From Rhodocyclaceae bacterium (lineage in GTDB: Bacteria; Pseudomonadota; Gammaproteobacteria; Burkholderiales; Rhodocyclaceae): a DNA stretch of 61,097 nucleotides. Positions 23,435 to 45,588 of the stretch are shown piece after piece. Each line of letters opens with the position of its first letter. The stretch's first letter is position 1. Location of the stretch: positions 1-61,097 of the forward strand of contig DATDMT010000054.1 in the NCBI GenBank assembly GCA_036518635.1, read 5' to 3'. Both the position numbers and the translations under genes were made by a program. The notes below the pieces were generated by a model, which saw only the letters and a list, made by a program, of their open reading frames with translations, did not search any database and was not told the DNA's origin.

Positions 23435-23445
23435 GGGGGAACCCC

Positions 23446-23985: not shown

Positions 23986-24003
23986 TTTAGTTCGCCTCCG
24001 CAG

Positions 24004-24042: not shown

Positions 24043-24127
24043 CAGCCCTGGCAGTGCCGCCGATTCCCCTTTTGCCGCTATCATTGCCGCTACAAAAGGC
24101 AACCAAGAGACCTGGGAGACCCGTGAC

Positions 24128-24988: not shown

Positions 24989-25028
24989 TTCGGCCCTTTT
25001 CCCTCCGCATGCATGATCGTGGCCTTCC

Positions 25029-25985: not shown

Positions 25986-26021
25986 TATACACGCATCTAT
26001 AACTAAAGGAATAGATTCTCA

Positions 26022-27245
26022 ATGCTCGGCATGTCCCGTTCAGTCTGGGTTGGTCTTGTCTTCGCCGTCCTCGGCGGAGCGGGCTTGGCCTGGCTGGTGG
26101 ACGACTTCAAGCTACCGTATTTCGCTACCGCCTTGCTGGCGGCCGGCATCGCCATGGCCGGCTTCCTGCTGGGGCGTGGCCGCGCGCCCGTGGGCGACGA
26201 TCCTGCCCGGCCGGCGGATGCGGGCGATACCCAACGGGTGCTGCTGGCCGAGTTCGAGCATTTGCTGGCCGAGTGCGCCAGCCAATTCCAGAACCAGCAC
26301 CAGGCGATCCAGGGCGAGACCGACCGGGTGCAGACGCTGCTGGCGGAAGCCATCAAATCCCTGACCGAAAGTTTCACCGGCATGTACCGGCAAACCGAGG
26401 AGCAGCGTCGACTTGGCCTTTCCGTCACCGCCGGCAGCGAGAATGCCAATTCGCCCGAGGCCTTCGATGAATTTGTCGCCAACACCTCCGGGGTGATGGA
26501 GAAGGTGGTGGACAGCATCATCTCCAATTCCAAACTCGGCATGGAACTGGTCGAGCTGACCGACGGCATCGCCCAGCGCACCCGCGATGTGCAGGCCATC
26601 CTGTCCGAGATCGGCGGCATCGCCAAGCAGACCAATCTGTTGGCGCTCAATGCCGCGATCGAGGCGGCCCGCGCCGGCGAGGCCGGGCGCGGCTTCGCCG
26701 TGGTGGCCGACGAGGTGCGCGACCTGTCGACCAGTACCTCCCAGTTCAGCCAGCAGATCAACGGACTGATGCAGAGCATGCAGGTCTCAGTGCGGCAGAC
26801 CGAGGAGGCGATCGAGCGCATGGCCAGCCAGGACATGACCTTCGCCCTCGATTCCAAGCAGCGCATCGAAGACATCATCCGCACCATGGAAGGCCAAAGC
26901 CGCGCCCGCATGGAGGCCATCGGCGGCCTGGCCGCCGCCGCCGCCGTGGTCGAGGGCGAGGTCTCCCGTGCTGTAACCGCGCTGCAGTTCCAGGACATGG
27001 TTTCCCAGTTGCTGGGCCACGTCCAGCGCCGGATCGAGGCGCTGGATACCGTCGTCAAGCACTTCGGCATGCTCGGCTCTGCCTTGCGCAGCGATGCCGA
27101 GCGCGGCGATGCGCCTGCCGCCATCGCTGGCCTCAAGGCCGAGGTGGAGCGCATGAAGCAAAGCCTCGTCGATCTGAGGCTGGACACTACACACAACCCC
27201 GTGGCCCAGGATGCAATGGCCCACGGAGATATCGAACTGTTCTGA
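26022..27245 (+). CDS. methyl-accepting chemotaxis protein, membrane-anchored hairpin without periplasmic domain; C-terminal GDIELF tail
   Basis: Two adjacent TM segments with a few-residue loop. MA domain [35 protein letters not shown]. Confidence 0.9.
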
Positions 27246-27267
27246 TTCTTCCGAGGAGCCCTTTCCC

Positions 27268-27633
27268 ATGGCAAAAACCATTCTCGCAGTCGACGACTCC
27301 GCATCCCTCCGGCAGATGGTGGCCTTTACCCTGAAGAGTTCCGGGTATGAGGTGATCGAAGCGGTGGACGGCCAGGATGGCCTGGACAAGGCCAAGGGCC
27401 AGACCGTCAACCTGATCCTCACCGACCAGAACATGCCGCGCATGGATGGCCTGACCCTGATCCGCAACCTGCGGGCGCTGCCCCAGTACAAGGCGACGCC
27501 GATCCTGATGCTGACCACCGAATCCTCCGACGCCATGAAGCAGCAAGGCCGCGCGGTGGGTGCCACCGGCTGGCTGGTCAAACCTTTCGACCCGCAAAAA
27601 CTCATCGAAGTCGTCAAGAAGGTCATCGGCTAA
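27268..27633 (+). CDS. cheY: chemotaxis response regulator CheY (operon-proximal, Che2/F7-type CheY)
   Basis: 121 aa: MAKTILAVDDSASLR...LILTDQNMPRMDG...LMLTTES...WLVKPF. Internal ATG of track ORF 27211..27633. Confidence 0.9.
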   Translation: MAKTILAVDDSASLRQMVAFTLKSSGYEVIEAVDGQDGLDKAKGQTVNLILTDQNMPRMDGLTLIRNLRALPQYKATPILMLTTESSDAMKQQGRAVGATGWLVKPFDPQKLIEVVKKVIG

Positions 27634-27665
27634 AACCGATCAAATCGACCAGGGGGAGGGGGCGT

Positions 27666-30080: not shown

Positions 30081-30090
30081 GGAGAATGCA

Positions 30091-30588
30091 ATGAGCCAGC
30101 AAAACAACACGGCGGCGGGTGAGCACGACGAATCGGCCTTCGCCCAGGAATTCCTCACCTTTACTTTGGGACCCGAGGAATACGCCATCGACATCCTCAA
30201 GGTGCAGGAAATCCGCGGCTACGAAAAGCCCACCACCATCGCCAATGCCCCGGCCTTTATCAAGGGCGTGGTGAACCTGCGCGGCACCATCGTCCCGATC
30301 GTCGATCTGCGCATCAAGTTCAACGTCGGCAAGGTCGAGTACACGCCGTTTACCGTGGTCATCATCCTCAATATCGGTGGCCGCGTGGTCGGCATCGTCG
30401 TCGATAGCGTTTCCGACGTGACCATGCTGCGCGGCGACCAGATCCGCCCGGCGCCCGAGTTCGCGGCGACGGTGGACACCAAGTACCTCAACGGGCTGGG
30501 CACTCTGGGCGATCGGATGCTGATCGTGCTGGACATCGAGAGCCTGGTGCACTCCTCCGATCTGGCCTTGTCGGACAACCCCATCTGA
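30091..30588 (+). CDS. cheW: chemotaxis coupling protein CheW
   Basis: 165 aa: [25 protein letters not shown]...[18 protein letters not shown]. Confidence 0.95.
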
Positions 30589-30636
30589 ACTGCCTGCGTG
30601 GACGCCTCAGCGACGCCCGAAAAAAAGGAGTAAGTC

Positions 30637-32505
30637 ATGGGAATACTCGAGAACATGTTCGGCGGCGGCCTCAAGGAAGGCCAGGTGGTGGTGGACCAAC
30701 TGACCCTCGACGAATTGCGCGGACAGATCGCCGCCATCAACAAATCCCAGGGCGTGATCGAGTTCAGCCTGGATGGGACGGTGCTCCACGCCAACGAGAA
30801 TTTTCTCGCCGTGCTCGGCTATCGCCTCGATGAAATCAAGGGCAAGCATCACAGCATGTTTGTCGACGGTGCTTACCGGCAGAGCCCGGAATACCGCCAG
30901 TTCTGGGACCGCCTCGGGCGTGGCGAATACGACGCCGGCCAGTACAAGCGGATTGGCAAGGGCGGCCGCGAGGTGTGGATTCAGGCCAGCTACAACCCGA
31001 TCCTGGATAGCCGTAACAAGCCGTTCAAAGTGGTCAAGTACGCCACCGACATCACTACCGAGATGCTGCGCAACGCCGATTCCGCCGGCCAACTGGCGGC
31101 CATCAGCAAGTCGCAGGGGGTCATCGAGTTCACCCTGGATGGCACGGTGCTGAATGCCAACGCAAATTTTCTCGCCGTGCTTGGCTACAGCCTGGATGAG
31201 GTGAAGGGCAAGCACCACAGCCTGTTCGTCGATCCCGCCTACCGCCAGAGCGCGGAATACCGCCAGTTCTGGGAGAAGCTCGGCCGCGGCGAATACGATG
31301 CCGGGCGCTATATGCGTATCGGCAAGGGCGGCCGCGAGGTGTGGATTCAGGCCAGCTACAACCCGATCCTCGATCTCAACGGCCAGCCCTGCAAGGTGGT
31401 CAAGTACGCTACCGACATTACCGCCCAGGTGAATGCAGCCAATGCCCTGCAGCGCACCGTCGACGAAACTCAGGCGATGGTCAATGCGGCGGTGGCCGGC
31501 GACCTGACCAAGCGGATTCCGATGGGCGGCAAGTCTGGCATGCTCGAGGCCCTCTGCGGTGGCGTCAATTCGCTGGTGGACACCATGGCCGGCATCGTCC
31601 GTCAGATTCAATCGGCCGCCGGCGAGGTGCTGACCGGAACCCGCGAAATCGCCAAGGGTAACCAGGACCTGTCGAGCCGGACGGAAGAACAGGCGAGCAG
31701 CCTGGAAGAGACGGCGAGCTCGATGGAGGAACTGAGCGCGACGGTAAAGCAGAACGCCGACAACGCCAAGCAGGCCAACGAGCTGGCGCAGAGATCGAAC
31801 GAGGCCGTGGCGCGCGGCGGCGAATCGGTGAAGCGGGTGGTGGCGACCATGAGCGACATCCAGGACAGCTCGAAGAAGATCGCCGACATCATCGGCGTGA
31901 TCGACAGCATCGCCTTCCAGACCAACATCCTGGCGCTGAACGCGGCAGTGGAAGCGGCGCGAGCCGGCGAGCAGGGCCGCGGCTTCGCCGTGGTGGCGAC
32001 GGAAGTGCGCAACCTGGCGCAGCGCAGCGCCACGGCGGCGAAGGAAATCAAGGAACTGATCTCCGCCTCGGTGGATAAGGTTGAAAGCGGCGCCAAGCAA
32101 GTGGCGCAGGCCGGCACGGCGATGGACGAAGTGGTGACCAGCTTCGGCCAGGTGGCGGTGCTGGTGACCGGCATCACCAATGCCAGCCGCGAGCAGGCGA
32201 GCGGTATCGAGCAAGTGACCAAGGCAGTCAGCCAGATGGACGAAGTCACCCAGCAGAACGCGGCGCTGGTGGAAGAAGCGGCGGCGGCGGCGGAAAGCCT
32301 GGAAGAGCAGGCCAAAAGCCTGGTCGAGGCGGTCAGCCGCTTCGACTTGGGCGAAAGCGGCCAGCAGCTACCGCGGCGCGCCGCCGCTGCTATTCCTGGG
32401 TCGGCCGCCGGCCACTCAGCGGTTCGTCCGCACTCGGCGAACCCGGTTAGGAAAATTTCCGCCCCCCGATTCGCTGCAGCCGAAGACCAGTGGGAAGAGT
32501 TTTGA
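30637..32505 (+). CDS. soluble methyl-accepting chemotaxis protein with two tandem PAS domains, HAMP-like linker, MA domain and C-terminal QWEEF pentapeptide
   Basis: No TM segment seen. Two ~120-aa PAS copies ([33 protein letters not shown]). Signalling hairpin [38 protein letters not shown]. Ends ...AAEDQWEEF. Confidence 0.9.
31660..32315 (+). repeat. 656-bp near-identical segment shared with 34561..35216 (MA-domain coding region)
   Basis: Hand alignment at constant offset 2901 nt shows roughly 25 mismatches in 656 nt, mostly synonymous. Flanking sequence diverges sharply. Confidence 0.85.
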
Positions 32506-32559
32506 TTAATTGCAAAGTTGCGACCCTGAAGCCTTAAGCCGAACACCACGGAGAATGCA

Positions 32560-35394
32560 ATGAGAACGAATCTGCCCGTTACCCAGAACGAAGTGCTCCT
32601 GACGGATCAGACCCTGATCGTCTCAAAGACCGATTTGAAGGGGCGGATTACCTATATCAACCAGGACTTCATCAACATCAGTGGCTTCAGCGAAGCGGAG
32701 CTGATCGGCGAACCGCATAACCTGGTGCGCCACCCGGACATGCCGGAGGAGGCCTTCGCCGACCTGTGGCGCACCCTCAAGGAAGGCCGGCCGTGGACCG
32801 GCTATGTCAAGAATCGCTGCAAGAACGGCGATTACTACTGGGTGCTGGCCAACGCCACGCCGATCTACGAGGGCGGCCAGGTGACTGGCTATATGTCGGT
32901 GCGGCGCAAGGCTTCGCGCGACGTGATCGAACAACTGGATCGGGTCTACCGGCAGTTCCGCGAAAAGAAGCAGGGCAATCTGCAAATCCGTTACGGCCAG
33001 GCGGTCAAGGGCGGCGGCAGTCGACTCGCCGATCTGCGGCTGTCCACCCGGCTCAGCGGCATGCTCGCCATCCTTGGTGTGCTGGTCTTGCTGATGGCGG
33101 GGCTGGGCCTGTACGCCCTGGCGGCGACCAAGGACAACGCCGATGCCTTGTTCCAGCGCCGCTTCGAGCCGATGCGCATGGTCGGCAGGATTCAGAAGCT
33201 GATGGCCGATAATCGCTCGCAGTTGCTATTGGGGGCTCAGCACGATCCCGCCGGGAACCTGGCCAAGACCCATGATCATCCGATCGGCCAGCATACCGAT
33301 GCCGTTGCCGCCAATATCGCCGAGATCACTCAGCTCTGGGAAAGCTACTACGGCTTGATCCGCGCCGAAGAGCACAAGCGGCTCGCCGACGCCTATCTGG
33401 AGTCGCGCAAGCGCTTTGTCGGCGAAGGCCTCAAGCCGGCCTCCGCAGCCTTGGCCGCGGGCGACTATGCGCAAGCCAATGCCCTGATCATCAATAAGGT
33501 AAACCCCTTGTACGTCGAAACGGCGGACAAGGCTGAAGCGCTGTTCAAATACCTGAGTGGGCACGCCAAGGAAGAGTTCGCCGATTCCAACGTGGCCTAC
33601 GAGCGGACGCGCATGGCCTTCGTCGTCATCCTGGCGCTGCTGACCGCTATCGGCGTGTTTGGCGCGGTGCGTCTGCTGGCATCGATCCGCCGGCCGATGG
33701 ATACCGTGCTCGACACCCTGCGCAACGTGACCCAGGGCAATTACTCCAACGAAATCGACATCACCCGCAACGACGAACTGGGCAAGGTGTTGCAGGGCTT
33801 GCAGACCATGCAGACCCGGTTGGGCTTCGAATTGGCCGACTCCAAGCGCGTCGCCGACGAGATGACGCGGGTCAAGATCGCCCTGGATAACGTTAGCACT
33901 GGGGTGATGATCGCGGATGCCAGCCGGACCGTGATCTACGCCAACAAATCGGTGGTCCGCATCCTCAAGGGCGCCGAGGCGGCGATCCGCCAGCAGTTGC
34001 CGAACTTCAATGCCGAGCACATGATCGGCGTCAATATCGATACCTTCCATAAGAATCCGGCCCACCAGGCGAAGCTGCTGGCCACCTTCACCGATCCCTA
34101 CGTCGCCAACCTGCAGATTGCCGACCGCCACCTGCGGGTGACCGCCAGCCCGGTGATCAACGATCGTGGCGAGCGCCTGGGTGCCGTGGCGGAGTGGCTG
34201 GACCGTACCGCCGAAATCAATGTTGAGCGGGAGGTGGAAGGCATCGTCTTTGCCGCCGCCCAGGGCGACTTCACCAAGCGCATCAAAGAAGAGGACAAGG
34301 AAGGCTTCTTCAAATCGCTGGCGGTGGGCATGAACCAGTTGATGACCACCAGCGCCCAAGGCCTTAATGCCGTCGCCGAAGTCCTCGGCGCCCTGGCGCA
34401 GGGGGATTTGACGCGGCAGGTGGATGGCGATTACCAGGGCACCTTCGGTCAACTCAAGGACGACACCAACACCACCGTCGAGCGGCTGAAGGAAGTCGTC
34501 GGCCGCATCCAGGAAGCCACCCAGGCGATCAACACCGCCGCCCAGGAAATCGCCGCCGGCAACCAGGACCTGTCGAGCCGCACGGAAGAACAGGCGAGCA
34601 GCCTGGAAGAGACGGCGAGCTCGATGGAGGAGCTGAGTTCGACGGTAAAGCAGAACGCCGACAACGCCAAGCAGGCCAACGAGCTGGCGCAGAAATCGAA
34701 CGAGGCGGTGGCGCGCGGCGGCGAATCGGTGAAGCGGGTGGTCGCGACTATGAGCGACATCCAAGACAGCTCGAAGAAGATCGCCGACATCATTGGCGTG
34801 ATCGACAGCATCGCCTTCCAGACCAACATCCTGGCGCTGAACGCCGCGGTGGAAGCGGCACGAGCCGGCGAGCAGGGCCGCGGCTTTGCCGTGGTGGCGA
34901 CGGAAGTGCGCAACCTGGCGCAGCGTAGCGCCACGGCGGCGAAGGAAATCAAGGAACTGATCTCCGCCTCGGTGGATAAGGTCGAAAGCGGCGCCAAGCA
35001 AGTGGCGCAGGCCGGCACGGCGATGGACGAAGTGGTGACCAGCTTCGGCCAGGTGGCGGTGCTGGTGACCGGCATCACCAACGCCAGTCGCGAGCAGGCG
35101 AGCGGCATCGAACAAGTGACCAAGGCGGTCAGTCAGATGGACGAAGTCACCCAGCAGAACGCGGCGCTGGTGGAAGAAGCAGCGGCGGCGGCGGAGAGCC
35201 TGGAAGAGCAGGCCAAGGGCCTGGTGGATGCGGTCAGCCAGTTCAACCTGGGCAGAACCCAGCAAAAGCCGGCACTGCGTTCGATGGCCGCGCTGCCGAG
35301 CCAGAAGCCGGCCCAGGCGCGCCCGGCCAGCCAGATCAAGAAGATTCCGCCGCCCCATCTCGCCAACTCCGAAGACGAGTGGGAAGAGTTCTAA
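32560..35394 (+). CDS. multi-sensor methyl-accepting chemotaxis protein: Aer-like N-terminal PAS, TM, periplasmic helical domain, TM, HAMP, second PAS, HAMP, MA domain, EWEEF pentapeptide
   Basis: The N-terminus [72 protein letters not shown] resembles the E. coli Aer FAD-PAS. TMs [23 protein letters not shown] and [19 protein letters not shown]. The MA domain is identical in type to that of the preceding gene. Confidence 0.9.
34561..35216 (+). repeat. second copy of the 656-bp MA-domain repeat (see 31660..32315)
   Basis: Same hand alignment as for 31660..32315. Confidence 0.85.
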
Positions 35395-35447: not shown

Positions 35448-36332
35448 ATGGCTATCGTTCCTGGCACCCCTCCCGCACCAAGCTTGAGGCCGGATCGCGA
35501 ATTTCATTTCGCCGATGCGGACTTCGAACGCGTGCGGGCGTTGATCTATAAACATGCCGGCATCGCCCTGGCCCCGATCAAGCGCGACATGGTCTATAGC
35601 CGCCTGGCGCGGCGCTTGCGCGCCCTGGGCTTGAGCACCTTCGCCCAGTACCTGAAGGTGCTGGAGGCCGGCGACGAGCAGGAATGGGAAACCTTCGTCA
35701 ATTCCCTGACGACCAACCTCACCTCCTTCTTCCGCGAAGCCCACCACTTCGACGTGCTCACCGAGCATATGCGCAAGGCCAAGACGCGGCCCTACCGCAT
35801 CTGGTGTTCGGCGGCGTCCACCGGCGAGGAGCCCTATTCCCTGGCGATGACGGCCTGCGAGGCGTTCGGTTCGCTGACGCCGCCGGTCAGCATCGTCGCC
35901 AGCGATATCGACACCAATGTGCTGGCGACGGCGGAGCGCGGCGTGTATGCCTTGGAGCGGGTGGAAAAACTGCCGCCGGCCCGCTTGCAGAAGTTCTTCC
36001 TGAAGGGCACCGGCGAGCGCAGCGGCTATGCCCGGGTGCGCCCGGAGTTGTTGCAACTGGTCACCTTCCGCCAGATCAACCTGCTCGATGCCCGTTATCC
36101 GGTGGACGGCCCCTTCGATGCGCTGTTCTGCCGCAACGTCATGATCTACTTCGACAAGCAGACGCAGTACGCCATCCTGGAAAAGTTCAAGCCCCTGCTC
36201 AAGCCGGAGGGTTTGCTGTTCGCCGGCCACTCGGAGAGCTTCATGCATGCGGCGAAGCTGTTCCGCTCCCTCGGCCGCACGGTGTATTGCCACACCGAAC
36301 ACAATCACCCTGAGGTTCACTCGCATCGATGA
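35448..36332 (+). CDS. cheR: chemotaxis protein methyltransferase CheR
   Basis: Contains LTTNLTSFFREAHHF and IWCSAASTGEEPYSLAM, plus FDALFCRNVMIYFD. Confidence 0.95.
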   Translation: MAIVPGTPPAPSLRPDREFHFADADFERVRALIYKHAGIALAPIKRDMVYSRLARRLRALGLSTFAQYLKVLEAGDEQEWETFVNSLTTNLTSFFREAHHFDVLTEHMRKAKTRPYRIWCSAASTGEEPYSLAMTACEAFGSLTPPVSIVASDIDTNVLATAERGVYALERVEKLPPARLQKFFLKGTGERSGYARVRPELLQLVTFRQINLLDARYPVDGPFDALFCRNVMIYFDKQTQYAILEKFKPLLKPEGLLFAGHSESFMHAAKLFRSLGRTVYCHTEHNHPEVHSHR

Positions 36333-36934
36333 GCGAATTGGGCTTCGTTGAACATCTCGCCAGCAATCTTTACTACGACCGCAATTTCGAGATCGAAGCG
36401 GTCAAGGTATTGCCCGGCGAGTACTACGTGACATCGACCGACATGGCCGTGGTCACGGTATTGGGTTCCTGTGTTTCCGCCTGCATCCGCGATCGGGAAA
36501 AGGGCATCGGTGGCCTCAACCACTTCATGCTGGCCGACGGCGGCAGCGATCCGATGGCCGGGGCCTCGGCGCGCTACGGCGGCTACGCGATGGAAGTGCT
36601 GGTGAACCATCTGCTCAAGCTCGGCGCCCGTCGCGAAAAGCTTGAAGCCAAGGTCTTCGGCGGCGGCAAGGTGATGGCCAGCCTGGCCGGCACCATGGTC
36701 GGCGAGCGCAATGCCAGCTTCGTACTGCAGTACCTGGCGACGGAAAAGATCGACATCGTCTCCCAGGACTTGCTCGATATCTATCCGCGCAAGGTGTACT
36801 TCTTTCCCAAGACCGGCCGGGTCATGGTGCGCAAGCTGGTGCGGCTGCACAACGACACGGTGGCGCGGCGCGAGAAGGAATACGCCTCGCGCCTGGTGGA
36901 GGCGCCCGTCTCCGGCGATGTCGAGCTTTTCTAA
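36329..36934 (+). CDS. cheD: chemoreceptor glutamine deamidase CheD (with unusual C-terminal GDVELF tail)
   Basis: Contains VTVLGSCVSACIRD (catalytic Cys) and GLNHFMLA. 4-nt overlap with cheR. Confidence 0.9.
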   Translation: MSELGFVEHLASNLYYDRNFEIEAVKVLPGEYYVTSTDMAVVTVLGSCVSACIRDREKGIGGLNHFMLADGGSDPMAGASARYGGYAMEVLVNHLLKLGARREKLEAKVFGGGKVMASLAGTMVGERNASFVLQYLATEKIDIVSQDLLDIYPRKVYFFPKTGRVMVRKLVRLHNDTVARREKEYASRLVEAPVSGDVELF

Positions 36935-36956
36935 AATTCAAGTGTTCTGACCGGAG

Positions 36957-38027
36957 ATGCCATTGCCGATCAAGGTTCTCGTTGTCGACGATTCTGCGCT
37001 GATGCGGGCGCTGCTCACCGAACTGATCGACGGTGCGCCCGATATGAAAGTGGTCGGCGCGGCCCCGGATCCGATCGCTGCGCGGGAAATGATCAAGTCC
37101 CTGGCACCCGACGTGGTGACCCTGGACGTGGAAATGCCGCGGATGGATGGCCTGGAGTTTCTCGGCCGTTTGATGCGGCTACGGCCGATGCCGGTGGTGA
37201 TGATCTCCTCCTACACCGAGCGTGGGTCGCAAATCACCCTGCAGGCCCTGGAGCTGGGTGCGATCGACTTCGCCACCAAGCCCCAGGCCGACAATCCGGA
37301 ACGCCTGCAGCGCTATGCGGAAGAGCTGCGCGACAAGATTCGCACCGCCTTCGGTGCCCGCCTCGGCCTGCGCTCCGCAGTCCGCGCTGCCGCGCCCGCC
37401 CCGGCGGCGCCGGCCAGTCTGGCAGGTGACATTCCGGCCCGCGTGCTGACGGAGAAGGTGGTGGCCCTCGGCGCCTCCACCGGCGGTACCGAGGCCATTC
37501 GCGCGGTCCTCACTGCCCTGCCGGCGGAAATGCCGCCCATCGTCATGGTCCAGCACATGCCGGAGACCTTCACCCCATCCTTTGCTGCGCGCCTGGATAG
37601 CCTGTCCCGGCTGACGGTGATCGAGGCCAAGGGCGGCGAGCGGCTGACCCCGGGTCATGCCTATCTGGCCCCGGGCCATTCCCACCTGCTGGTGAAGAAG
37701 CAGGGCGGCGCGTTTTATACCGAACTCAGCAAGGCCGATCCGGTGAACCGCCACCGTCCCGCCGCCGACGTGTTGTTCCATTCTGTCGCCGCGGAGGTGG
37801 GCAAGAACGCCCTCGGCGTGATCCTCACCGGCATGGGCAAGGACGGCGCGCAGGGCCTATTGGAAATGCGCAATGCCGGATCGTGGAACATCGGCCAGGA
37901 TCAGGATAGTTGCGTGGTCTACGGCATGCCCCGGGCGGCGGCCGAGATCGGCGCGCTGCACGAGGTTGCGGCCCTGGGCGAGATTGCTCCGCGCCTTGTT
38001 GCGCACCTGCGCAGGGCCAGCCCCTGA
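36957..38027 (+). CDS. cheB: chemotaxis response regulator protein-glutamate methylesterase CheB
   Basis: REC IKVLVVDDSALMR...VVTLDVEMPRMDG. Esterase motifs ALGASTGGTEA, VMVQHMP and ILTGMGKDGA. Confidence 0.95.
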   Translation: MPLPIKVLVVDDSALMRALLTELIDGAPDMKVVGAAPDPIAAREMIKSLAPDVVTLDVEMPRMDGLEFLGRLMRLRPMPVVMISSYTERGSQITLQALELGAIDFATKPQADNPERLQRYAEELRDKIRTAFGARLGLRSAVRAAAPAPAAPASLAGDIPARVLTEKVVALGASTGGTEAIRAVLTALPAEMPPIVMVQHMPETFTPSFAARLDSLSRLTVIEAKGGERLTPGHAYLAPGHSHLLVKKQGGAFYTELSKADPVNRHRPAADVLFHSVAAEVGKNALGVILTGMGKDGAQGLLEMRNAGSWNIGQDQDSCVVYGMPRAAAEIGALHEVAALGEIAPRLVAHLRRASP

Positions 38028-38080: not shown

Positions 38081-38386
38081 ATGCAAACCAATCTCGTCAA
38101 GGCCGACGGTAAGGCGACGATTCGCCTGACCGGCCGCTTCGACTTCAATTCGCACCGTGAATTCCGCGAGTGCGTCGATGGTGCCCTGCAGGACGCCGAT
38201 GCCAAGGAAGTGGTGGTAGACCTCGCTGCGGTGGATTACCTCGACAGCTCGGCCCTCGGCATGCTGCTGATGTTGCGCGACAAGGCGCGGGCCGCCGGCA
38301 AGACGACCACCCTGTCCAACTGCCGCGGCGCCGTGAAGCAGGTGTTGGATATCGCGAATTTCGGCAAACTGTTTCAGATCGCCTGA
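38081..38386 (+). CDS. STAS-domain anti-sigma-factor antagonist-like protein (HsbA/SpoIIAA class)
   Basis: 101 aa. Contains VVDLAAVDYLDSSALGMLLMLRDKA (conserved phosphorylatable Ser context DSSALG). RBS GGAGAG lies upstream. Confidence 0.85.
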   Translation: MQTNLVKADGKATIRLTGRFDFNSHREFRECVDGALQDADAKEVVVDLAAVDYLDSSALGMLLMLRDKARAAGKTTTLSNCRGAVKQVLDIANFGKLFQIA

Positions 38387-38424
38387 ATCGCCCCGCTCGC
38401 AGACCACTGCGCCGCCGAGGTGGC

Positions 38425-40026
38425 ATGAACTACCTGCTGGCAACCGACCAGGCCGAAGCGCTGACCGGCCTCGTTTCCCGCCTGTCCGCGCTCGGCTACC
38501 AGCAGGGGCCGGACGCTGGCGTGATGCTGGCCTGTTTCCGCGATCCCGGCGAGCTGGAGCATGCGCTGGCGGCGGCGCCGGGAACCTCCTTCGTACTCGG
38601 CATTTATCTGCCGGGGCAGCAGCAGCAGGCCGGCTCGATGCTGGCCGCCGGCGCAGATGCCTGCCTGCCCAGCGATGCGAGCAACGCCTTGCTGGAATCC
38701 CAACTCCTCGCCATTGCCCGGCGCCACGCGGCGCGGGATCGGCAGGACCTGCGCATCGCCCGGCATGAGCAGGAGCAGGATGCCGCCTACCTGCTGCTGG
38801 AGCGGGTGCTGAGCCAGTACCGGCACGAGGCGGCGGATATTTCATTCAAAAGCCTGGGGGTGTCGCCGTCCGGCGGTGACATCTTCCTGGCGGTACGTAC
38901 TCCGTCTGCGGTGCTGCACCTGTTGTTCGTGGACGGCCCGGGCACGTCGATGTTGCGTTCCCTGGATATCCTGCCGGTGCTGCCGGTGTTTCACAGCATG
39001 AGCGAGAAAGGCTTCAGCCTGGATTCCATCGCCCGCGAGATGAACGACAAGGCGCGCCTGCTGTTGCCCGAGGGCCGCCATATCGCCTGCACCCTGGCAG
39101 CGGTGGATTTCCGCGACCCGCTGATTCAGTTCTGGAACGGCGGTAATCCACGGCCGATCGTGGTCGATCGGCAAGGACGGTTGGTGTTCGAGTGTCCGAC
39201 GGTGCACCCGCCGCTCGGCGCGGTAGCGCATGCGGCCTTCTGCGGCACGTTGAATGCCTACGCCTTTCAGGAGGATGACGGTCTGATCCTCTGCTCGGAT
39301 GGCTTGATCGGCGGCGAATCACCCCCCGCACTCGGCTACTCCGGGGTGCGTGCCGCACTCGCCGCCGCCGGCGATCCAGAGTCTCGGGCGCAGGCGGTGT
39401 TCGATGCCTTCCGCCGCCGGATGGATGGCGCTTCCCCCGCGGACGATGCTTCGGTGTTGGCCCTGCATTGCCGCAAGGCCGCACTGGCGGTGCGCAGTAC
39501 GGAAGCCTCGCCGATGGTCGATACCGCCGGTGCCCATTGGCGCGTCACCCTGCGTCTTGGCGCCGAAGAATTGCGCCGCGTGGACGCGGTGCCGGCCTTG
39601 CTGGGCGTCGCCAGCCAGATCGAGACCGCACGGATGCCCAGCGGCGAGCTGTTCGTGGTGCTCTCCGAGTTGTTCAACAACGCCCTGGACCATGGTCTGT
39701 TGAAACTGGATTCCGCCCTGAAGGCCGGGCCGGATGGCATGGCGGATTACCTCGACGAACGCTCGCTGCGCCTTGCGGCATTGCGGCATGGGGTCGTCGA
39801 AATGTCCGTGGAGGCAATCACCCACAATGGCAAGCATGCGATCCGGGTGCACTGCCGAGATAGTGGCGAGGGCTTCGACCATCGCGCCATGGGGTTGGAT
39901 GCCGTCGAGGACAGCGAACGCCCCTATGGTCGCGGCCTGATGCTGCTGCGCAGGCTCGCCGTGGCCATCGAATTCAACGACCCTGGCAACGAAGTCACGG
40001 TCGTCATGGGGACGCCGGATTCCTAG
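38425..40026 (+). CDS. three-domain partner-switch enzyme: degenerate receiver + SpoIIE/PP2C phosphatase + GHKL anti-sigma-type Ser kinase (HsbR/CrsR-like)
   Basis: Start at MNYLLATDQ (in frame within track ORF 38170..40026). PP2C motifs SGGDIFLAV, LFVDGPGTS, ILCSDGL and ADDASVLALH. Kinase motifs LSELFNNALDHG, RDSGEGF and YGRGLMLL. By hand alignment the N-terminal ~100 aa are receiver-like but lack the DD pocket and the phospho-Asp. Confidence 0.8.
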   Translation: MNYLLATDQAEALTGLVSRLSALGYQQGPDAGVMLACFRDPGELEHALAAAPGTSFVLGIYLPGQQQQAGSMLAAGADACLPSDASNALLESQLLAIARRHAARDRQDLRIARHEQEQDAAYLLLERVLSQYRHEAADISFKSLGVSPSGGDIFLAVRTPSAVLHLLFVDGPGTSMLRSLDILPVLPVFHSMSEKGFSLDSIAREMNDKARLLLPEGRHIACTLAAVDFRDPLIQFWNGGNPRPIVVDRQGRLVFECPTVHPPLGAVAHAAFCGTLNAYAFQEDDGLILCSDGLIGGESPPALGYSGVRAALAAAGDPESRAQAVFDAFRRRMDGASPADDASVLALHCRKAALAVRSTEASPMVDTAGAHWRVTLRLGAEELRRVDAVPALLGVASQIETARMPSGELFVVLSELFNNALDHGLLKLDSALKAGPDGMADYLDERSLRLAALRHGVVEMSVEAITHNGKHAIRVHCRDSGEGFDHRAMGLDAVEDSERPYGRGLMLLRRLAVAIEFNDPGNEVTVVMGTPDS

Positions 40027-40291
40027 GGTCTGTTCTCATTCAGTCGGCGGATCGCGTTGCGCCCCAATCTGGATGGATGCAAGGCGGAGGGTGCTGGCAA
40101 TGGTTGTTCCATTGCCGAGCCCGACAACGCCGCAGACGCCGGATTGGGGCGCAATCCGAAGGGAAGGGGTCGGATCGGGTGCATTGCGGCGTTGCTTCCT
40201 CCTCGTTGGGGATCGCCCAACCACGTCGGTCGCGCCTTGCACTGCGCCCGATCCGACCCCTTCGCGACCGTCGCCTGAATGAGAACAGACC
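40027..40291. repeat. 265-nt composite palindromic element, copy 1
   Basis: Perfect 17-bp terminal inverted repeats (40027-40043 / 40275-40291). Two internal ~100-nt hairpin modules with 13-14-bp stems. Core blocks are identical to those of the copy at 46650..46914. No credible ORF. Confidence 0.85.
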
Positions 40292-40444: not shown

Positions 40445-41407
40445 ATGTCCGAACTACTGAAGAACATCGACGCACGCACCAAGCTGGCTGGCACCAACAA
40501 ACTGGAAATTCTGCTGTTCTCCCTCGGGGTGGACGGCCGTACCGGGCGTCGCGAGACCTTCGGCATCAACGTATTCAAGGTGCGCGAAGTGATGCGCACG
40601 CCGCAGATCACTGCGGCACCGGATATGCCCGGCTCGGTCAAGGGCATGGTCAGCCTGCGCGGCGTGCTGGTCCCCGTGGTGGACCTGGCGGAATACGTCG
40701 GCATGCAGCCGGAAAGCCCGCGCGACATCATGATCGTCACCGAATACGCGGGCCACACCCAGGGCTTCCTGGTCGAGGGCGTGGATACGATTCTGCGGCT
40801 CGACTGGGCGCAGATGCGGGTGCCGCCGGAAATGCTGGTGTCCAACCTGGGCGGCCTGGTGACCGCCGTCACCGAACTGCCGGATTCGCGCCTGGTGATG
40901 ATGCTCGACGTCGAGCGCATCCTGGCCGAAACCACCAACTACGACGACGATCTGCTGTTTGCCGACCTGCCGCCGATCGGCCAGGAGGGCTTGACCATCG
41001 TCTATGCCGACGACTCGTCGGTGGCCCGCAACCAGATCGAGCGCACCTTGCAGGCCCTCGGCGTGCGCGGTATCAGTGCCGTCAATGGCCGTGCTGCCTG
41101 GGATGAATTGCAGCGCATCGCCGCCCATGCCGACACCACCGGGCGCAAGGTCAAGGACATCGTCAATCTGATTTTGACCGACGTGGAAATGCCGGAGATG
41201 GACGGCTACATCCTGACCAAGCACGTCAAGTCCGATCCGCGCTTCGCCGGTATCCCGATCCTGATGCATTCGTCCCTGTCCTCCATGTCCAATCAGCAGT
41301 TGGGTCGCTCGGTGGGCGTGGACGAATATGTTTCCAAGTTCGAACCGCAGCGCTTGGCAGAAACGCTGACTCGCCTGTTGCGCGCCTCCGGCGCCATCAA
41401 GGCATAG
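40445..41407 (+). CDS. cheV: chemotaxis protein CheV (CheW-like domain + receiver)
   Basis: Contains LEILLFSLG...FGINVFKVREVMRTP...MVSLRGVLVPVVDL. C-terminal REC IVYADDSSVARN...LILTDVEMPEMDG. Confidence 0.9.
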   Translation: MSELLKNIDARTKLAGTNKLEILLFSLGVDGRTGRRETFGINVFKVREVMRTPQITAAPDMPGSVKGMVSLRGVLVPVVDLAEYVGMQPESPRDIMIVTEYAGHTQGFLVEGVDTILRLDWAQMRVPPEMLVSNLGGLVTAVTELPDSRLVMMLDVERILAETTNYDDDLLFADLPPIGQEGLTIVYADDSSVARNQIERTLQALGVRGISAVNGRAAWDELQRIAAHADTTGRKVKDIVNLILTDVEMPEMDGYILTKHVKSDPRFAGIPILMHSSLSSMSNQQLGRSVGVDEYVSKFEPQRLAETLTRLLRASGAIKA

Positions 41408-41423
41408 TTTCGGAGGCTGGTCC

Positions 41424-42392
41424 ATGACAAGCAACTCGATGGTCACTACTTCCTCGCAGAATTCCCTGCTCGACACGGTCGACGCGCGGACCAAGCTGGC
41501 CGGCTCGAACCGCATGGAAATCCTGCTGTTCGAACTGGGTACCCACGAAACCTTCGGCATCAACGTCTTCAAGGTGCGCGAAGTCAGCCGCACCCCCAAC
41601 ATCACCAAGGCGCCGAACATGCCGCAGGGGGTCGAGGGCTTGATCAGCCTGCGCGGCAATGTGATCCCGGTGGTCTCCCTGTGCCGTGTCATGGGCCTGG
41701 ATGATGCGCCGGCCGGCCTCGGCCAATCGATGATGGTGACCGAATACAGCAAGCGCACCCTCGGCTTTCTGGTGCATAGCGTAGACCGCATCATCCGCGT
41801 CGAATGGGACAAGGTGCGTGCCCCCGAGGCCGTGACCAGCGGCTCCCATGCCTACATCACGGCGATTACCGAACTCGCCGACGGCAAGCTGGTGTCCATC
41901 GTCGACGTCGAGCAGATTCTCGCCAACACCTTCGGCGAGGCCCTGGTCGGCCAGATCGAGCCGATCCGCGCCGCCGGCGATCTCGATGTGTTCTTCGTCG
42001 ACGACTCTGCCGTGGCCCGCAAGAAGATTGCCGAGGTGCTGGAGAAGCTCGGCGTCCGCCACAAGCATGCGCAGAACGGCATGGAGGCCTGGACCCGCCT
42101 GCAGGGCATGGCCAACGCCGCCCAGGCCGCCGGCCGCAGCGTTCAGGACGAGTTGAACCTGATCCTGGTCGATGCCGAGATGCCCGAGATGGACGGCTAC
42201 GTGCTGACCAAGAACATCAAATCCGATGCCCGCTTCGACGGTATCCCCGTCGTCATGCATTCCTCCCTTTCGTCCGAGGCCAACCGCGCCATGGGCAAGA
42301 GCGTCGGCGTCGATTCCTACGTCGCCAAGTTCGATGCCGATGCCTTGGCCGATACCCTGCGTCCCCTGCTGATCAAGTCCCAAAGGGACTGA
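41424..42392 (+). CDS. cheV: chemotaxis protein CheV (second paralog)
   Basis: Contains MEILLFELGTHETFGINVFKVREVSRTP...LISLRGNVIPVVSL. REC VFFVDDSAVARK...LILVDAEMPEMDG. Confidence 0.9.
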   Translation: MTSNSMVTTSSQNSLLDTVDARTKLAGSNRMEILLFELGTHETFGINVFKVREVSRTPNITKAPNMPQGVEGLISLRGNVIPVVSLCRVMGLDDAPAGLGQSMMVTEYSKRTLGFLVHSVDRIIRVEWDKVRAPEAVTSGSHAYITAITELADGKLVSIVDVEQILANTFGEALVGQIEPIRAAGDLDVFFVDDSAVARKKIAEVLEKLGVRHKHAQNGMEAWTRLQGMANAAQAAGRSVQDELNLILVDAEMPEMDGYVLTKNIKSDARFDGIPVVMHSSLSSEANRAMGKSVGVDSYVAKFDADALADTLRPLLIKSQRD

Positions 42393-42407
42393 GTCTGGAG
42401 AGTTTCA

Positions 42408-42803
42408 ATGCCTGCTGATCCGAGCAAAATCAAGTTCCTCGTTGTCGATGACTTTTCCACGATGCGGCGCATCGTGCGGAACCTGCTCAAGGAGCTCGGT
42501 TTCACCAACGTCGAAGAAGCGGAAGACGGTGCCATCGCCCTGCAAAAGCTCAAGGCGGGCAGCTTCGATTTCGTCGTCTCCGACTGGAACATGCCGAACA
42601 TGGACGGCCTGACCCTGCTGCAAACCGTGCGCGCCGATCCGGAACTGAAGCACCTGCCGGTGCTGATGATCACCGCCGAAGCGAAGAAGGAAAACATCAT
42701 CGCCGCGGCCCAGGCCGGCGCTTCCGGTTACATCGTCAAGCCGTTCACCGCGGCGACCTTGAACGAGAAGATGATCAAGATCTTCGAGAAGATGGGCCTC
42801 TGA
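42408..42803 (+). CDS. cheY: chemotaxis response regulator CheY (motor-binding type)
   Basis: 131 aa: [24 protein letters not shown]...[13 protein letters not shown]...[13 protein letters not shown]...GYIVKPF, very close to enteric CheY. Confidence 0.95.
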
Positions 42804-42812
42804 GGACGCGCC

Positions 42813-43646
42813 ATGGGAACCCCGGCAAAATTCGACGAATCCGGCGACTCTGACGATCTGCAGGCGCTGTTCGACAACATCGCGGGCGCCAGTGCGGCCC
42901 CGCCGCCACCGCCGCCGCCGGCGAACAATTCCGCTGGCGACTCCGACGATCTGCAGGCGCTGTTCGATAGCGTTGCCTCCGAGGTCGCCCAGCCGAGTAC
43001 GGCGGCGCCTGCGGCAGCCGTCGCCAGCGATGGCGCCGACCAGGCGGATGCGGTGTTCAATCGTCTCGGCACCCTGGCCCGGCAACTCCACGAGAGCATG
43101 CGCGAGCTTGGCTACGACCGCATGCTGGAAGATTCCGCGCGGCAGATTCCCGACGCCCGCCAGCGCCTGACCTACATCGCCCAGATGACCGAACAGGCGG
43201 CCAGTCGCGTGCTGAACGCCACCGATGTGGCCAAGCCGATCCAGGACCGCCTGATGGCCCAATCCGCCGACCTGGGCAAGCGCTGGGATCGGATGTTCGC
43301 CAATCAGTTGTCCGTGGACGAGTTCAAGGCCCTGGCCGCTGACAGCCGGAATTTCTTCCTGCAGGGGCCCGGCCAGATGAAGACCGTGAACGACCAGTTG
43401 ATGGAAATCGTCATGGCCCAGGACTTCCAGGACCTCACCGGCCAGGTGATCAAGAAGGTCGTGGAAATGGTCCAGGACCTCGAGTCGCAACTGCTCTCGG
43501 TGCTGATCGAAGCCATGCCCGAAGAGAGAAAGGCCGAAGCGCCGGAAGGCTTGCTGAACGGCCCGGTGATCAATGCCGCAGGTCGCGTCGATGTGGTGAC
43601 CAGCCAAACTCAGGTCGATGACCTGCTGGAGAGCCTGGGCTTCTAG
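42813..43646 (+). CDS. cheZ: CheY-P phosphatase CheZ
   Basis: Contains RQRLTYIAQMTEQAASRVLNATD and the catalytic-Gln region IVMAQDFQDLTGQVIKKV. C-terminal CheY-binding peptide QVDDLLESLGF. Confidence 0.9.
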   Translation: MGTPAKFDESGDSDDLQALFDNIAGASAAPPPPPPPANNSAGDSDDLQALFDSVASEVAQPSTAAPAAAVASDGADQADAVFNRLGTLARQLHESMRELGYDRMLEDSARQIPDARQRLTYIAQMTEQAASRVLNATDVAKPIQDRLMAQSADLGKRWDRMFANQLSVDEFKALAADSRNFFLQGPGQMKTVNDQLMEIVMAQDFQDLTGQVIKKVVEMVQDLESQLLSVLIEAMPEERKAEAPEGLLNGPVINAAGRVDVVTSQTQVDDLLESLGF

Positions 43647-43674
43647 CCCGGCCGCGTGAAAGAAGGAGCGAGCC

Positions 43675-45588
43675 ATGAGTGACTTTCAGGGAATGGAAGA
43701 CCTGCTGCAGGATTTCCTGGTCGAGGCCACCGATCTGCTGTCGGGGGTGGACAACAAACTGGTGGATCTGGAGCAAAGCCCGCAGGATCATGGCCTGCTG
43801 AACGACATCTTCCGCGGCTTCCACACCATCAAGGGCGGCGCCGGCTTTCTCAACGCCACCGAGCTGGTGACCCTCTGCCACCTCACCGAAAACCTGTTTG
43901 ACCGCCTGCGCAACGGCGAGATGACCGTCAATGGCGAGCTGATGGACGTGATCCTCAACGCCACCGGCGCCGTGCGCGACATGTTCGGCGCCCTGGAGAG
44001 TGGCATGCAGCCGTCGCCCGCGCCTGCGCAACTGATTGCCGCGCTCAAGGCCGCACTGGCCGGCGAACCGGTGGCCGCCGCGGCTGCCGCCGCGCCCGTG
44101 GCTGCCGCTGCGGCGCCCGTTGCTGCGGCGCCCGCTGCGCCTGGTGCTGGCCCCGATTGGGACCAGCTCTTTTCCGCCGTCGCCAACACGCCGGCCGCTG
44201 CCGCACCCGCTCCCAGCGCCGTGGTCCCTGCGCCGGCACCGGCCATGCACCATGAAGTCAGCGGCGAGTCCCCCGAGCAGATCATCACCGCCGCCATCGG
44301 CCGCCGCACCACCGACAAGCCGGGCGTCCAGTCTGCCCCGGTGGGCCGTCGCGAAACCGAAAAGTCGCGCGACAACTCGATCCGCGTCGACACCTCGCGC
44401 CTCGACCAGGTGCTCAACCTGTCCGGCGAAATCGGCCTGACCAAGAACCGCCTCAACTCGCTGCGCTCCGACATCCTCAACGGCCGCAACGACACCGACA
44501 CCCTGCACGCCCTCGACCAGGCCGTCAGCCAGCTCGACCTGCTGGTCTCCGATCTGCAAAACGCGGTGATGAAGACCCGCATGCAGCCGATCGGCCGGCT
44601 GTTCCAGAAATACCCGCGGATCGCTCGCGATCTAGCGCGCTCCCTGGGCAAGGATGTCGAACTGCTGTTGATCGGCGAAGACACCGAAATCGACAAGACC
44701 ATGATCGAGGATCTTTCCGACCCGATCATCCACTTGATCCGCAATGCCGTGGACCACGGCATCGAGCCGACCGAAGAACGCGCCGCCCTCGGCAAGTCTC
44801 TGAAGTCCCAGGTGCGCCTCGAAGCCCGCCAGGAAGGCGACCACATCGTCCTCGTGGTGGCCGACGACGGCCGCGGCATGAACGCCGAACGGCTGCGCGC
44901 CAAAGCCCTGGAGAAAGGCCTCATCACCGATGAAGAGGCCAACACCATGGACGAGCGGCAGAGCTACAACCTGGTCTTCCTGCCCGGCTTCTCCACCAAG
45001 GATGTGGCGTCCGACGTTTCCGGCCGCGGCGTCGGCATGGACGTGGTGAAGACCAACATCCAGAAGCTCAACGGCTCCATCGAAATCAAGTGCGTCGCCG
45101 GCAAGGGCACCACCTTCATCATCTCCCTGCCGCTGACCCTGGCCATCCTGCCGGTGCTGCTGGTGCAGCTCGGCCAGCAGCCCTTCGCCGTGCCGCTGTC
45201 GATGGTCCGCGAAATCCTTCCGATCGACGTCAGCGCCATTCAGGAAGTCGGCGGCCGCGCCACCATGGTGGTGCGCGGCGAAGTGATGCCGATCTACCCG
45301 TTGTCCCACCTGCTGGGCTGGCGCCCGGTGGGCATCCCCGGCTACGGTGTGCTGATGCAGACCGCGGAGCAGGCCTTTATCCTCGCCATCGACGGCTTCA
45401 TGGGTCGCGAAGACGCGGTGATCAAGTCCCTCGACGATTTCCGTCCGAAGGGCGTGGCCGGCGTCACCACCCTGTCCAACGGCCAGATCGTGCTGATCCT
45501 GGATATCAAGGAACTGCTGGTTGCCCTCGGCGAGGCTCGCGGCGTACCGCGTTCCGCATTGCTGCCGTCCGTGGCGGACGCCGCTTGA
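43675..45588 (+). CDS. cheA: second chemotaxis histidine kinase CheA (637 aa, Ala/Pro linker in place of P2)
   Basis: Hpt site FRGFHTIKGGAGFL. HATPase motifs HLIRNAVDHGIE, DDGRGM and GRGVGMDVV. Has a P5 CheW-like domain. Confidence 0.95.
   Translation: MSDFQGMEDLLQDFLVEATDLLSGVDNKLVDLEQSPQDHGLLNDIFRGFHTIKGGAGFLNATELVTLCHLTENLFDRLRNGEMTVNGELMDVILNATGAVRDMFGALESGMQPSPAPAQLIAALKAALAGEPVAAAAAAAPVAAAAAPVAAAPAAPGAGPDWDQLFSAVANTPAAAAPAPSAVVPAPAPAMHHEVSGESPEQIITAAIGRRTTDKPGVQSAPVGRRETEKSRDNSIRVDTSRLDQVLNLSGEIGLTKNRLNSLRSDILNGRNDTDTLHALDQAVSQLDLLVSDLQNAVMKTRMQPIGRLFQKYPRIARDLARSLGKDVELLLIGEDTEIDKTMIEDLSDPIIHLIRNAVDHGIEPTEERAALGKSLKSQVRLEARQEGDHIVLVVADDGRGMNAERLRAKALEKGLITDEEANTMDERQSYNLVFLPGFSTKDVASDVSGRGVGMDVVKTNIQKLNGSIEIKCVAGKGTTFIISLPLTLAILPVLLVQLGQQPFAVPLSMVREILPIDVSAIQEVGGRATMVVRGEVMPIYPLSHLLGWRPVGIPGYGVLMQTAEQAFILAIDGFMGREDAVIKSLDDFRPKGVAGVTTLSNGQIVLILDIKELLVALGEARGVPRSALLPSVADAA

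Follow-up and report, generated by a model that had tools for sequence, protein, structure and literature searches.

What sets a partner switch when its input domain cannot be phosphorylated? The question is raised by a locus of a Rhodocyclaceae bacterium that lies on a stretch of 61,097 nucleotides (contig DATDMT010000054.1 of assembly GCA_036518635.1; we call the whole stretch the window). Here the chemotaxis genes cheR, cheD, and cheB are followed by a gene for a small STAS protein and then by a gene for a 533-residue protein that joins a PP2C-type serine phosphatase to an RsbW-like kinase. It is likely that this pair is a partner switch of the CrsA/CrsR (or HsbA/HsbR) type, which is an ancestral component of F7 chemosensory clusters, and that in this organism it is not set by phosphotransfer. 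The argument depends on the following features, all of which are on the + strand:

35448..38027, +: cheR-cheD-cheB, directly 5' of the pair and co-oriented with it (Pfam CheD and CheB_methylest plus Response_reg; list of open reading frames, or ORFs)
36957-38027, +: cheB (Pfam CheB_methylest plus Response_reg)
38081-38386, +: STAS anti-sigma-factor antagonist, CrsA/HsbA-like, 101 residues (ORF; Pfam STAS_2 1.5e-18, STAS 1.2e-17)
38425-40026, +: phosphatase/kinase protein, 533 residues (ORF, Pfam)
38425..38682, +: shortened, degenerate receiver-like domain, residues 1-86 (local matches, structural model, fold matches)
38683..38820, +: long alpha-helical linker, residues 87-132 (helix in the structural model, joining the pseudo-receiver to the phosphatase domain)
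38839..39474, +: PP2C/SpoIIE-type serine phosphatase domain, residues ~139-350 (Pfam SpoIIE 1.4e-20, residues 164-349)
39541..40026, +: RsbW-type GHKL serine kinase or anti-sigma domain, residues ~373-533 (Pfam HATPase_c_2 3.9e-9, residues 406-527)

A sequence-only reading of the window had placed both ORFs, with a gap of 53 nucleotides between the cheB stop and the STAS gene and a gap of 38 nucleotides between the STAS gene and the 533-residue gene, and the coordinates are exactly as it gave them. Its STAS, phosphatase, and kinase domain calls are borne out by the Pfam matches above.

The input and output halves of the protein

The start of the 533-residue protein is hard to recognize. Residues 1-131 do not match Pfam's Response_reg family even at E <= 10, and the whole protein matches no NCBIfam family, whereas the homologues P0055 and P0002 match 94-98 response-regulator families. 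When residues 1-105 were compared with 1.84 billion representative proteins, no true relative was found: there were two matches, both to tandem-repeat proteins whose scores were summed from chance matches. What is left of a receiver becomes visible in short local matches to the receivers of homologues, all of which are in one reading frame. Residues 1-39 match beta1-alpha1-beta2 of a receiver, VLGIYLPG (57-64) matches ITDIYMPG of the homologues, and LAAGADACLPSD... (73-99) matches alpha4-beta5-alpha5. In this local alignment, which respects the D-x-x-x-P spacing, T7-D8 take the place of the acidic pair, G59 that of the phosphorylated aspartate (phospho-Asp), and S83 that of the lysine. The implied deletion is of about 28 residues, so that alpha3-beta4 and the conserved threonine are gone.

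The sequence-only reading had already described the receiver as degenerate, with TD in place of the DD pocket, and we agree. It had also put an isoleucine at the phospho-Asp position. The residue is indeed not an aspartate, but the position is that of G59, and the isoleucine, I60, is one residue off. A global alignment with MAFFT would instead put Cys37 there; this is ruled out by the local alignment together with the order of strands in the AlphaFold2 (AF2) model, where beta3 is FVLGIY.

The AF2 model has a mean predicted confidence (pLDDT) of 84.5 at full length, or 82.8 if the N-terminus is modelled alone. In the model, the N-terminus runs beta1-alpha1-beta2-alpha2-beta3-alpha-beta, with four strands, and then enters the helix at 87-132. 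Its best fold matches in the PDB are all receivers (CheY, PhoP, KdpE, WspR, and RssB), although the matches are weak (E about 1e-3, template modelling scores of 0.4-0.55). We also considered whether a frameshift or a sequencing error conceals a normal receiver. This is ruled out, as the remnants are in one frame and the other frames do not contain receiver motifs. The frame is open with normal periodicity of GC at third codon positions, and codon-position GC over the N-terminus is normal for a coding region. Because there is no frameshift and codon-position GC is normal, we conclude that the domain is translated and that, going by the model, it is probably folded. As far as alignment and model can tell, it is a truncated relic of a receiver and cannot be phosphorylated. 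We suggest that the 533-residue protein should not be named a response regulator. Our literature search found no mention of a pseudo-receiver in this partner-switch context.

The other end of the module is conserved. To quantify this, we count a position as conserved if conservation in its alignment column reaches 90% or more among the family members. In the kinase/anti-sigma domain, none of the 34 conserved positions is changed, and the motifs of the kinase are intact: the N-box (E415, N419, H423), DxGxG (D479, G481, G483), and GRG (502-504). The STAS protein is near the family consensus. It scores 63.5 bits against NCBIfam TIGR00377 (the anti-sigma-factor-antagonist superfamily), which is above the cutoff of 53.45, and it has the phosphorylation motif D55-S56-S57; all 85 of the 85 family members have DSS. 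In the PDB, the best fold match for the full AF2 model is Rv1364c, a fused RsbU-RsbW protein (3ke6, E 2.6e-15).

Between these two ends lie the linker and the phosphatase. The linker (residues 87-132) corresponds to what is called the crossing linker in PPM phosphatases of the RsbU/RssB type (PMC12143880), and the full model aligns to RssB from Pseudomonas aeruginosa (3f7a) over about 390 columns (E 6.9e-15). After 3ke6 and 3f7a, the fold matches of the PP2C domain are SiaA (6k4e), SpoIIE, and RsbX. The PP2C domain is modelled with pLDDT above 90, and its metal-binding aspartate motifs (D152, D170, D292, D340/D341) are kept, in invariant alignment columns. Nevertheless, 10 of the 44 conserved positions of the linker and PP2C domain are changed (A146V, L168F, A169V, H174T, G175S, L176M, A178R, Y190H, F219H, and E296G), and none of the other members, 85 in all, has as many: the runner-up has 6, and the median is 0. 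Five of the ten, namely H174T, G175S, L176M, A178R, and Y190H, are within or immediately beside the pair of helices that comes after D170-G-x-G. These helices, 176-182 and 185-194 in the model, correspond to the alpha1/alpha2 "switch element." In RsbU, SpoIIE, and RssB, N-terminal domains and a helical linker control metal binding by way of the switch element (PMC12143880). So the region made up of the pseudo-receiver, the linker, and the switch helices appears to be where regulation has changed. We asked if loss of the phospho-Asp and divergence of the PP2C domain go together across the family, and there was no significant correlation (p = 0.12 by a Mann-Whitney test without correction for phylogeny). 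Judged from the alignment, the phosphatase of the window is an individual outlier.

Relatives and gene neighborhood

A protein search found about 215 homologues of the 533-residue protein, nearly all of which are ~570 residues long and contain PF00072, PF07228, and PF13581. Some of them carry the KEGG product name of HsbR (HptB-dependent secretion and biofilm response regulator) at the Joint Genome Institute (JGI). We also scanned a collection of genomes, which gave 79 betaproteobacterial loci, mostly from Rhodocyclales and Nitrosomonadales, whose ORFs we labelled with the proteins of the window. The STAS gene is directly 5' of the gene for the fused protein in 75 of the 79. Of these loci, 70 extend far enough upstream to be assessed for cheB, and in 60 of them cheB is directly 5' of the STAS gene, with a median gap of 61 nucleotides. 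So the association with cheB, which the sequence-only reading had proposed to check across genomes, is widespread. That reading had described the module as inserted behind cheR-cheD-cheB. As a sign of something out of the ordinary, this was mistaken: the module is an ancestral and published component of F7 clusters, and CrsR and CrsA are themselves encoded within che1 (PMC7184735, PMC9855816).

Zoogloea has the same gene order as the window except for an extra methyl-accepting chemotaxis protein (MCP): cheW-MCP-MCP-cheR-cheD-cheB-STAS-fused protein-MCP-cheV-cheV-cheY-cheZ-cheA. The stretch from cheW and the MCP genes to the F6-type cheA is also found in Azospira and in other Rhodocyclales. Among the relatives, flhC-motAB is in front only in a reduced locus, L067, with the order flhC-motAB-cheR-cheB'-STAS-fused protein-cheV. 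In three other loci, two of them JGI metagenome contigs (L003 and L004) and the third from Sulfurisoma sediminicola (L015), the order is flhD-flhC-STAS-fused protein-cheY and then a short CheZ-like ORF. These three loci have neither motAB nor F7 che genes between flhDC and the pair, and their receivers have glycine at the phospho-Asp position.

Receivers have been damaged in other relatives as well. Of the 85 distinct sequences, about 61 have the canonical signature (DD/D/T-S/K). The phospho-Asp is replaced by glycine in Sulfurisoma sediminicola, P0008, and L080; by serine in P0015 and P0017; by alanine in P0022 and Uliginosibacterium; and by alanine, with the threonine and lysine lost too, in Methyloversatilis and L065. 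Little or no receiver is left in L049, P0100, P0104, and P0114. Because the losses of the phospho-Asp fall in at least 5 places in a rough neighbor-joining tree of the PP2C and kinase part, receiver decay is, on this sequence evidence, recurrent in this betaproteobacterial family. We view this as a modest but usable evolutionary observation. Among the full-length proteins of the family, that of the window has the most eroded receiver. In the tree, it groups with the Methyloversatilis clade, which we treat as possible long-branch attraction, as we saw no shared motifs.

Other architectures also occur. In Gallionellales and relatives (L071, L074, L077-L079, L082, L083, and L085), the homologue that follows cheB-STAS has 700-835 residues and its N-terminus cannot be aligned to a receiver. 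Related homologues of 700 residues (P0107, P0116, and P0119) have a HAMP domain (PF00672) in the receiver's place. L074 and L082 each encode two copies of the phosphatase/kinase.

Within the window, AGGAG lies upstream of the STAS gene and GAGGTGG lies upstream of the 533-residue gene. A crude consensus scan of the + strand found no terminator-like or sigma-70-like site in the gap between cheB and the STAS gene. Since the genes are closely spaced, and neither a terminator nor a promoter is predicted between cheB and the pair, the pair is probably co-transcribed with cheB. The remaining features of the window that we discuss are:

13770-15641, +: dCache-HAMP-GGDEF protein (Pfam)
20854-22773, +: HDOD-REC-GGDEF protein, just upstream of flhD (Pfam)
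23118..35394, +: flhD, flhC, motA, motB, MCP, cheY, cheA (804 residues), cheW, PAS-PAS MCP, and PAS-4HB-HAMP-PAS MCP (Pfam, sequences)
40027..40291, +: structured repeat of ~265 nucleotides, like a repetitive extragenic palindrome or a miniature inverted-repeat transposable element, with nested inverted repeats, directly after the stop codon of the 533-residue gene
40445..45588, +: cheV-cheV-cheY-cheZ-cheA, F6-type genes in an order that is kept in Zoogloea and most Rhodocyclales loci (Pfam, ORF list)
47804-48604, +: stand-alone PP2C_2 phosphatase, 266 residues (Pfam E 6.5e-10)
51654-54683, +: PAS-PAS-GGDEF-EAL-REC protein (Pfam)

From 23118 to 45588, the gene order is flhD-flhC-motA-motB-MCP-cheY-cheA-cheW-PAS MCP-MCP-cheR-cheD-cheB-STAS-phosphatase/kinase-cheV-cheV-cheY-cheZ-cheA. 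This is the Rhodocyclales arrangement, that is, flhDC-motAB, the F7 genes, cheB, the pair, and then cheV-cheV-cheY-cheZ-cheA, with an mcpA gene lost after the pair. In the upstream cluster, the PAS-PAS MCP is soluble and CheY has its signature residues (DD/D/T/K) intact. The CheA of 804 residues (27666-30080) contains four copies of the motif D-G-A-[Y/F]-G-F-F at residues 239-361 (28380-28748). They span a low-complexity linker between a weak match to a P2-like "CheY-binding" domain (residues 171-223) and the dimerization domain, and they might be short docking motifs. The second, F6-type CheA (637 residues, 43675-45588) has none.

The 533-residue gene and the first cheV are 418 bp apart, and the repeat lies in this gap, at a site that in most relatives holds a gene for an mcpA-like receptor. 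The transcription unit probably ends at the repeat. The repeat is predicted to fold into a Y shape at -191 kcal/mol, as compared to a mean of -118 for shuffled sequences (z = -14.4). It matched no family in Rfam, with only sub-threshold microRNA noise. The repeat family is dispersed: full copies with 93-96% identity and unrelated flanks are present on four metagenome contigs (L103, L089, L102, and L088), diverged copies (68-75%) are present on other contigs, and at many loci the two outer arms occur alone as a short palindrome.

Two more observations concern the flanks. The stand-alone PP2C_2 gene is 8 kb 3' of the module, and upstream of it are genes for a Sel1-repeat protein (45850-46650) and for a 250-residue ORF without a family match. 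On the - strand, an isolated ORF of 147 residues with matches to RVT_3 and RNase H-like families (15649-16092) has a GGDEF gene on one side and a radical-SAM gene on the other.

What might set the switch

If the pair works like its better-studied counterparts, then the C-terminal RsbW-like domain would phosphorylate the serine in the DSS motif of the STAS protein, and it would probably sequester a sigma factor, as CrsR and HsbR do with RpoS. The PP2C domain would strip the phosphate off again. The phosphorylation state of the STAS protein would decide whether it binds to the kinase domain, which would free the sigma factor, and/or binds to another partner such as FlgM. What would differ here is the input. 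The receiver appears not to be phosphorylatable; therefore, the balance of kinase and phosphatase would not be set by phosphotransfer from CheA or Hpt. Control must then lie in the binding of a protein to the pseudo-receiver or linker, in the level of expression, or there is none. Binding would resemble the action of RsbT on RsbU or of the Ira proteins on RssB. Alternatively, the phosphatase may have a single, fixed level of activity, and the balance may follow from how strongly the pair is expressed as part of a che operon driven by flhDC.

It is an open question in the field how ancestral F7 systems signal and whether the partner switch attached to them gives them control of RpoS (PMC7184735, PMC9855816). 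A receiver that cannot be phosphorylated, together with a conserved kinase and STAS protein, is a natural experiment in which the module has been kept without its phosphotransfer input.

Several considerations weigh against our interpretation. First, changes such as H174T, G175S, and E296G, among others in the PP2C domain, could mean that the phosphatase is impaired rather than re-regulated. Second, the receiver-like fold in the AF2 model is partly circular, as the alignment that went into the model consists of receiver-bearing homologues. Third, the mechanism of the 533-residue protein is argued from homology and its target from analogy, and the link to SO_2119 and PA3346 comes from domain design and the HsbR name of homologues. 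Fourth, the source organism has no close relative in either search: in the protein search, the nearest relative, of whatever kind, has only 41% identity across 86% of the query, and identities in the scan of the genome collection did not exceed 43%. Fifth, the promoter and terminator scan behind the predicted co-transcription considered consensus sites only. Finally, a Pfam scan of the ~40 larger ORFs of the window, which left out ORFs below about 110 residues and hence those in FlgM's size range, found no sigma or anti-sigma factor. The sequence-only reading had stated that the target (an anti-sigma factor or a cyclase) is not encoded nearby. For sigma and anti-sigma factors this holds among the ORFs that were scanned. 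For cyclases it does not hold as worded, as the window encodes three GGDEF proteins for the turnover of cyclic di-GMP; however, nothing ties any of them to the module.

Of the other explanations, the one that fares best is that the synteny is merely historical, and that the module serves flagellar regulation (FlgM/sigma-28, as with HsbA) and is carried along in a transcription unit that depends on flhDC. When the che genes are deleted, as in L003, L004, and L015, the module is directly after flhDC, and in L067 it is after flhC-motAB-cheR-cheB'; in the window, too, the whole cluster is placed after flhDC-motAB. Because the module persists by flhDC after che loss, and because of the flagellar transcription context, FlgM/sigma-28 would be a serious alternative to RpoS as the target. 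FlgM has about 100 residues. Neither flgM nor fliA was found among the larger ORFs that were scanned, which argues against this idea only within that size limit. Unphosphorylated HsbA does bind FlgM (PMC6482189), but CrsR, the homologue that is linked to che genes, acts on RpoS, and one chance deletion could explain why the module is still next to flhDC. Overall, we think that a purely flagellar role is possible, but we would not bet on it.

It could also be that the input half of the protein is decaying. The receiver and the PP2C domain would then be vestigial, with a weak or dead phosphatase, and the locus would amount to a plain RsbW/RsbV-like pair of kinase and antagonist. The STAS protein would be phosphorylated by default, and any dephosphorylation would be due to another phosphatase, such as the stand-alone PP2C at 47804-48604. 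The contrast between the PP2C domain, with 10 of 44 conserved positions changed, and the kinase, with 0 of 34, is what would be expected, as are a receiver that is truncated beyond recognition by sequence, the complete loss of the receiver in some relatives (L049, P0100, P0104, and P0114), and a separate PP2C_2 protein encoded 8 kb downstream. On the other hand, all four metal-binding aspartate motifs are kept, the N-terminal frame is open with normal third-position periodicity, and the PP2C domain is modelled at pLDDT above 90. Moreover, the residue that corresponds to H174 is not known to be conserved in those enzymes of the SpoIIE family that are active. So we doubt that the input half is simply decaying.

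A more ambitious idea is that the pseudo-receiver is a docking domain and that the switch has been rewired to protein-protein control, with phosphorylated CheY, CheA, or another component of the array as the partner, and that the repeated, independent losses of the phospho-Asp in Rhodocyclales mark the takeover of the flagellar motor by F7. If this were true, then these organisms would be present-day intermediates between stages 2 and 4 of the Ortega scheme that have kept both outputs, and F7 would have dropped its stress or sigma-factor output when it took over the motor. We consider this unlikely.

Finally, that the F7 array signals by CheA phosphotransfer to the 533-residue protein, and thereby to a transcriptional or cyclic di-GMP output, seems very improbable: gene linkage to cheB is conserved, most relatives (about 61/85) have canonical receivers, and it has been proposed that Che1 controls RpoS via CrsR (PMC9855816), but the window protein lacks the phospho-acceptor aspartate, the threonine, and the lysine along with one beta-alpha unit, the module persists by flhDC without F7 che genes (L003, L004, and L015), and our literature search found no demonstration of phosphotransfer from CheA to CrsR. 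The sequence-only reading had taken the degenerate receiver as an argument against simple CheA phosphotransfer. That argument is now stronger, with five signature positions counted as lost (T7 and D8, G59, one deleted, and S83) and a beta-alpha unit deleted. It had also suggested that the chemosensory pathway might have a transcriptional or cyclic di-GMP output. For the family, this is a published but still unproven hypothesis; in this organism, the output would be less direct, because phosphotransfer is excluded.

Comparison with known systems

CrsR and HsbR are receiver-PP2C-kinase/anti-sigma proteins that bind RpoS, and whether their STAS partners are phosphorylated determines how these switch; unphosphorylated HsbA binds FlgM, while phosphorylated HsbA binds HsbD (PMC6482189, Bouillet et al. 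2019). Binding of RpoS by the kinase domain, and kinase and phosphatase activity on the STAS protein, have been shown for CrsR and HsbR only (PMC6482189). The sequence-only reading had recognized this design, and we concur on the basis of the domain order, the STAS neighbor, and the HsbR name of homologues, having compared published descriptions. Like CrsR and HsbR, the window protein has a SpoIIE/PP2C domain with its metal-binding motifs, an RsbW-like GHKL domain, and an adjacent STAS protein with a phosphorylatable serine. What it does not have is a phosphorylatable N-terminal receiver.

The closest parallel is CrsR/CrsA of Shewanella oneidensis (SO_2119/SO_2118), where a STAS protein and a fused phosphatase-kinase/anti-sigma protein are also encoded within an F7 cluster (PMC9855816, PMC7184735). 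The che1 locus holds crsR and crsA beside cheA1, Y1, W1, R1, D1, B1, and two MCP genes, and Che1 "could be involved" in the regulation of RpoS (PMC9855816, Fortier et al. 2022). Both loci have the cluster cheY-cheA-cheW-aer2-like MCP-cheR-cheD-cheB, and by published description, CrsR is alike in its size class and in having PP2C followed by GHKL. But CrsR has a receiver, D1, at residues 1-118 (PMC6482189 supplement), where the window protein has a truncated pseudo-receiver, and the Shewanella pair is at the front of its cluster (stage 2), whereas the pair in the window has the stage-1 position after cheB. HsbR/HsbA of Pseudomonas aeruginosa (PA3346/PA3347) share the three-domain design and the STAS partner, and their outputs are RpoS, FlgM, and HsbD (PMC6482189). 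HsbR is fed by phosphotransfer from HptB and is encoded outside of the che clusters, while the window protein apparently cannot take a phosphoryl group.

More distant systems share parts of the design. RssB of P. aeruginosa (3f7a) and the RsbU/RsbP-type PPM phosphatases also contain a regulatory domain at the N-terminus, a long linker helix, and a PP2C domain that carries switch helices, but RssB has no kinase domain, and RsbU's N-terminal domain is a four-helix domain that binds RsbT. Rv1364c of Mycobacterium tuberculosis (3ke6) combines an RsbU-like phosphatase and an RsbW-like kinase in one chain, but it has a PAS input domain, a fused STAS domain, and no linkage to che genes, and its sequence identity to the window protein is about 15%. 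In the SiaABCD system of P. aeruginosa, a transmembrane/HAMP-PP2C protein (SiaA), a kinase (SiaB), SiaC, and a diguanylate cyclase (SiaD) are encoded by separate genes. In contrast, the window has a fused phosphatase and kinase, a classical STAS partner, and no adjacent cyclase, and only the PP2C fold matches SiaA (6k4e).

As for the cluster as a whole, in the oldest, "stage 1" F7 clusters, an anti-sigma antagonist and a serine phosphatase come after cheB (PMC7184735, Ortega et al. 2020). The window resembles these in having cheY, cheA, cheW, a PAS-containing (aer2-like) receptor, cheR, cheD, and cheB together and then the antagonist and phosphatase (PMC7184735). An ancestral F7 cluster would also have its F6 system elsewhere and no flagellar genes in front, and here the window differs: it has flhDC-motAB in front and F6 cheY-cheZ behind, which are stage-4 features, as well as two cheV genes and an F6-type cheA. 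Also unlike stage 1, it has no mcpA-like gene between cheB and the pair and no 5' STAS gene. So the cluster is, by gene content and order, a mosaic of stage-1 and stage-4 features, and by the text of PMC7184735, this combination is not among the five stages described. This betaproteobacterial type of locus, with flhDC-motAB, then F7 and the partner switch, and then the F6 genes cheV-cheV-cheY-cheZ-cheA, may help to refine the five-stage model.

In sum, a STAS protein and a phosphatase/kinase after cheB are an already known and conserved part of F7-class clusters. What appears to be new here is the combination of a truncated pseudo-receiver, an outlier PP2C domain, and a fully conserved kinase.

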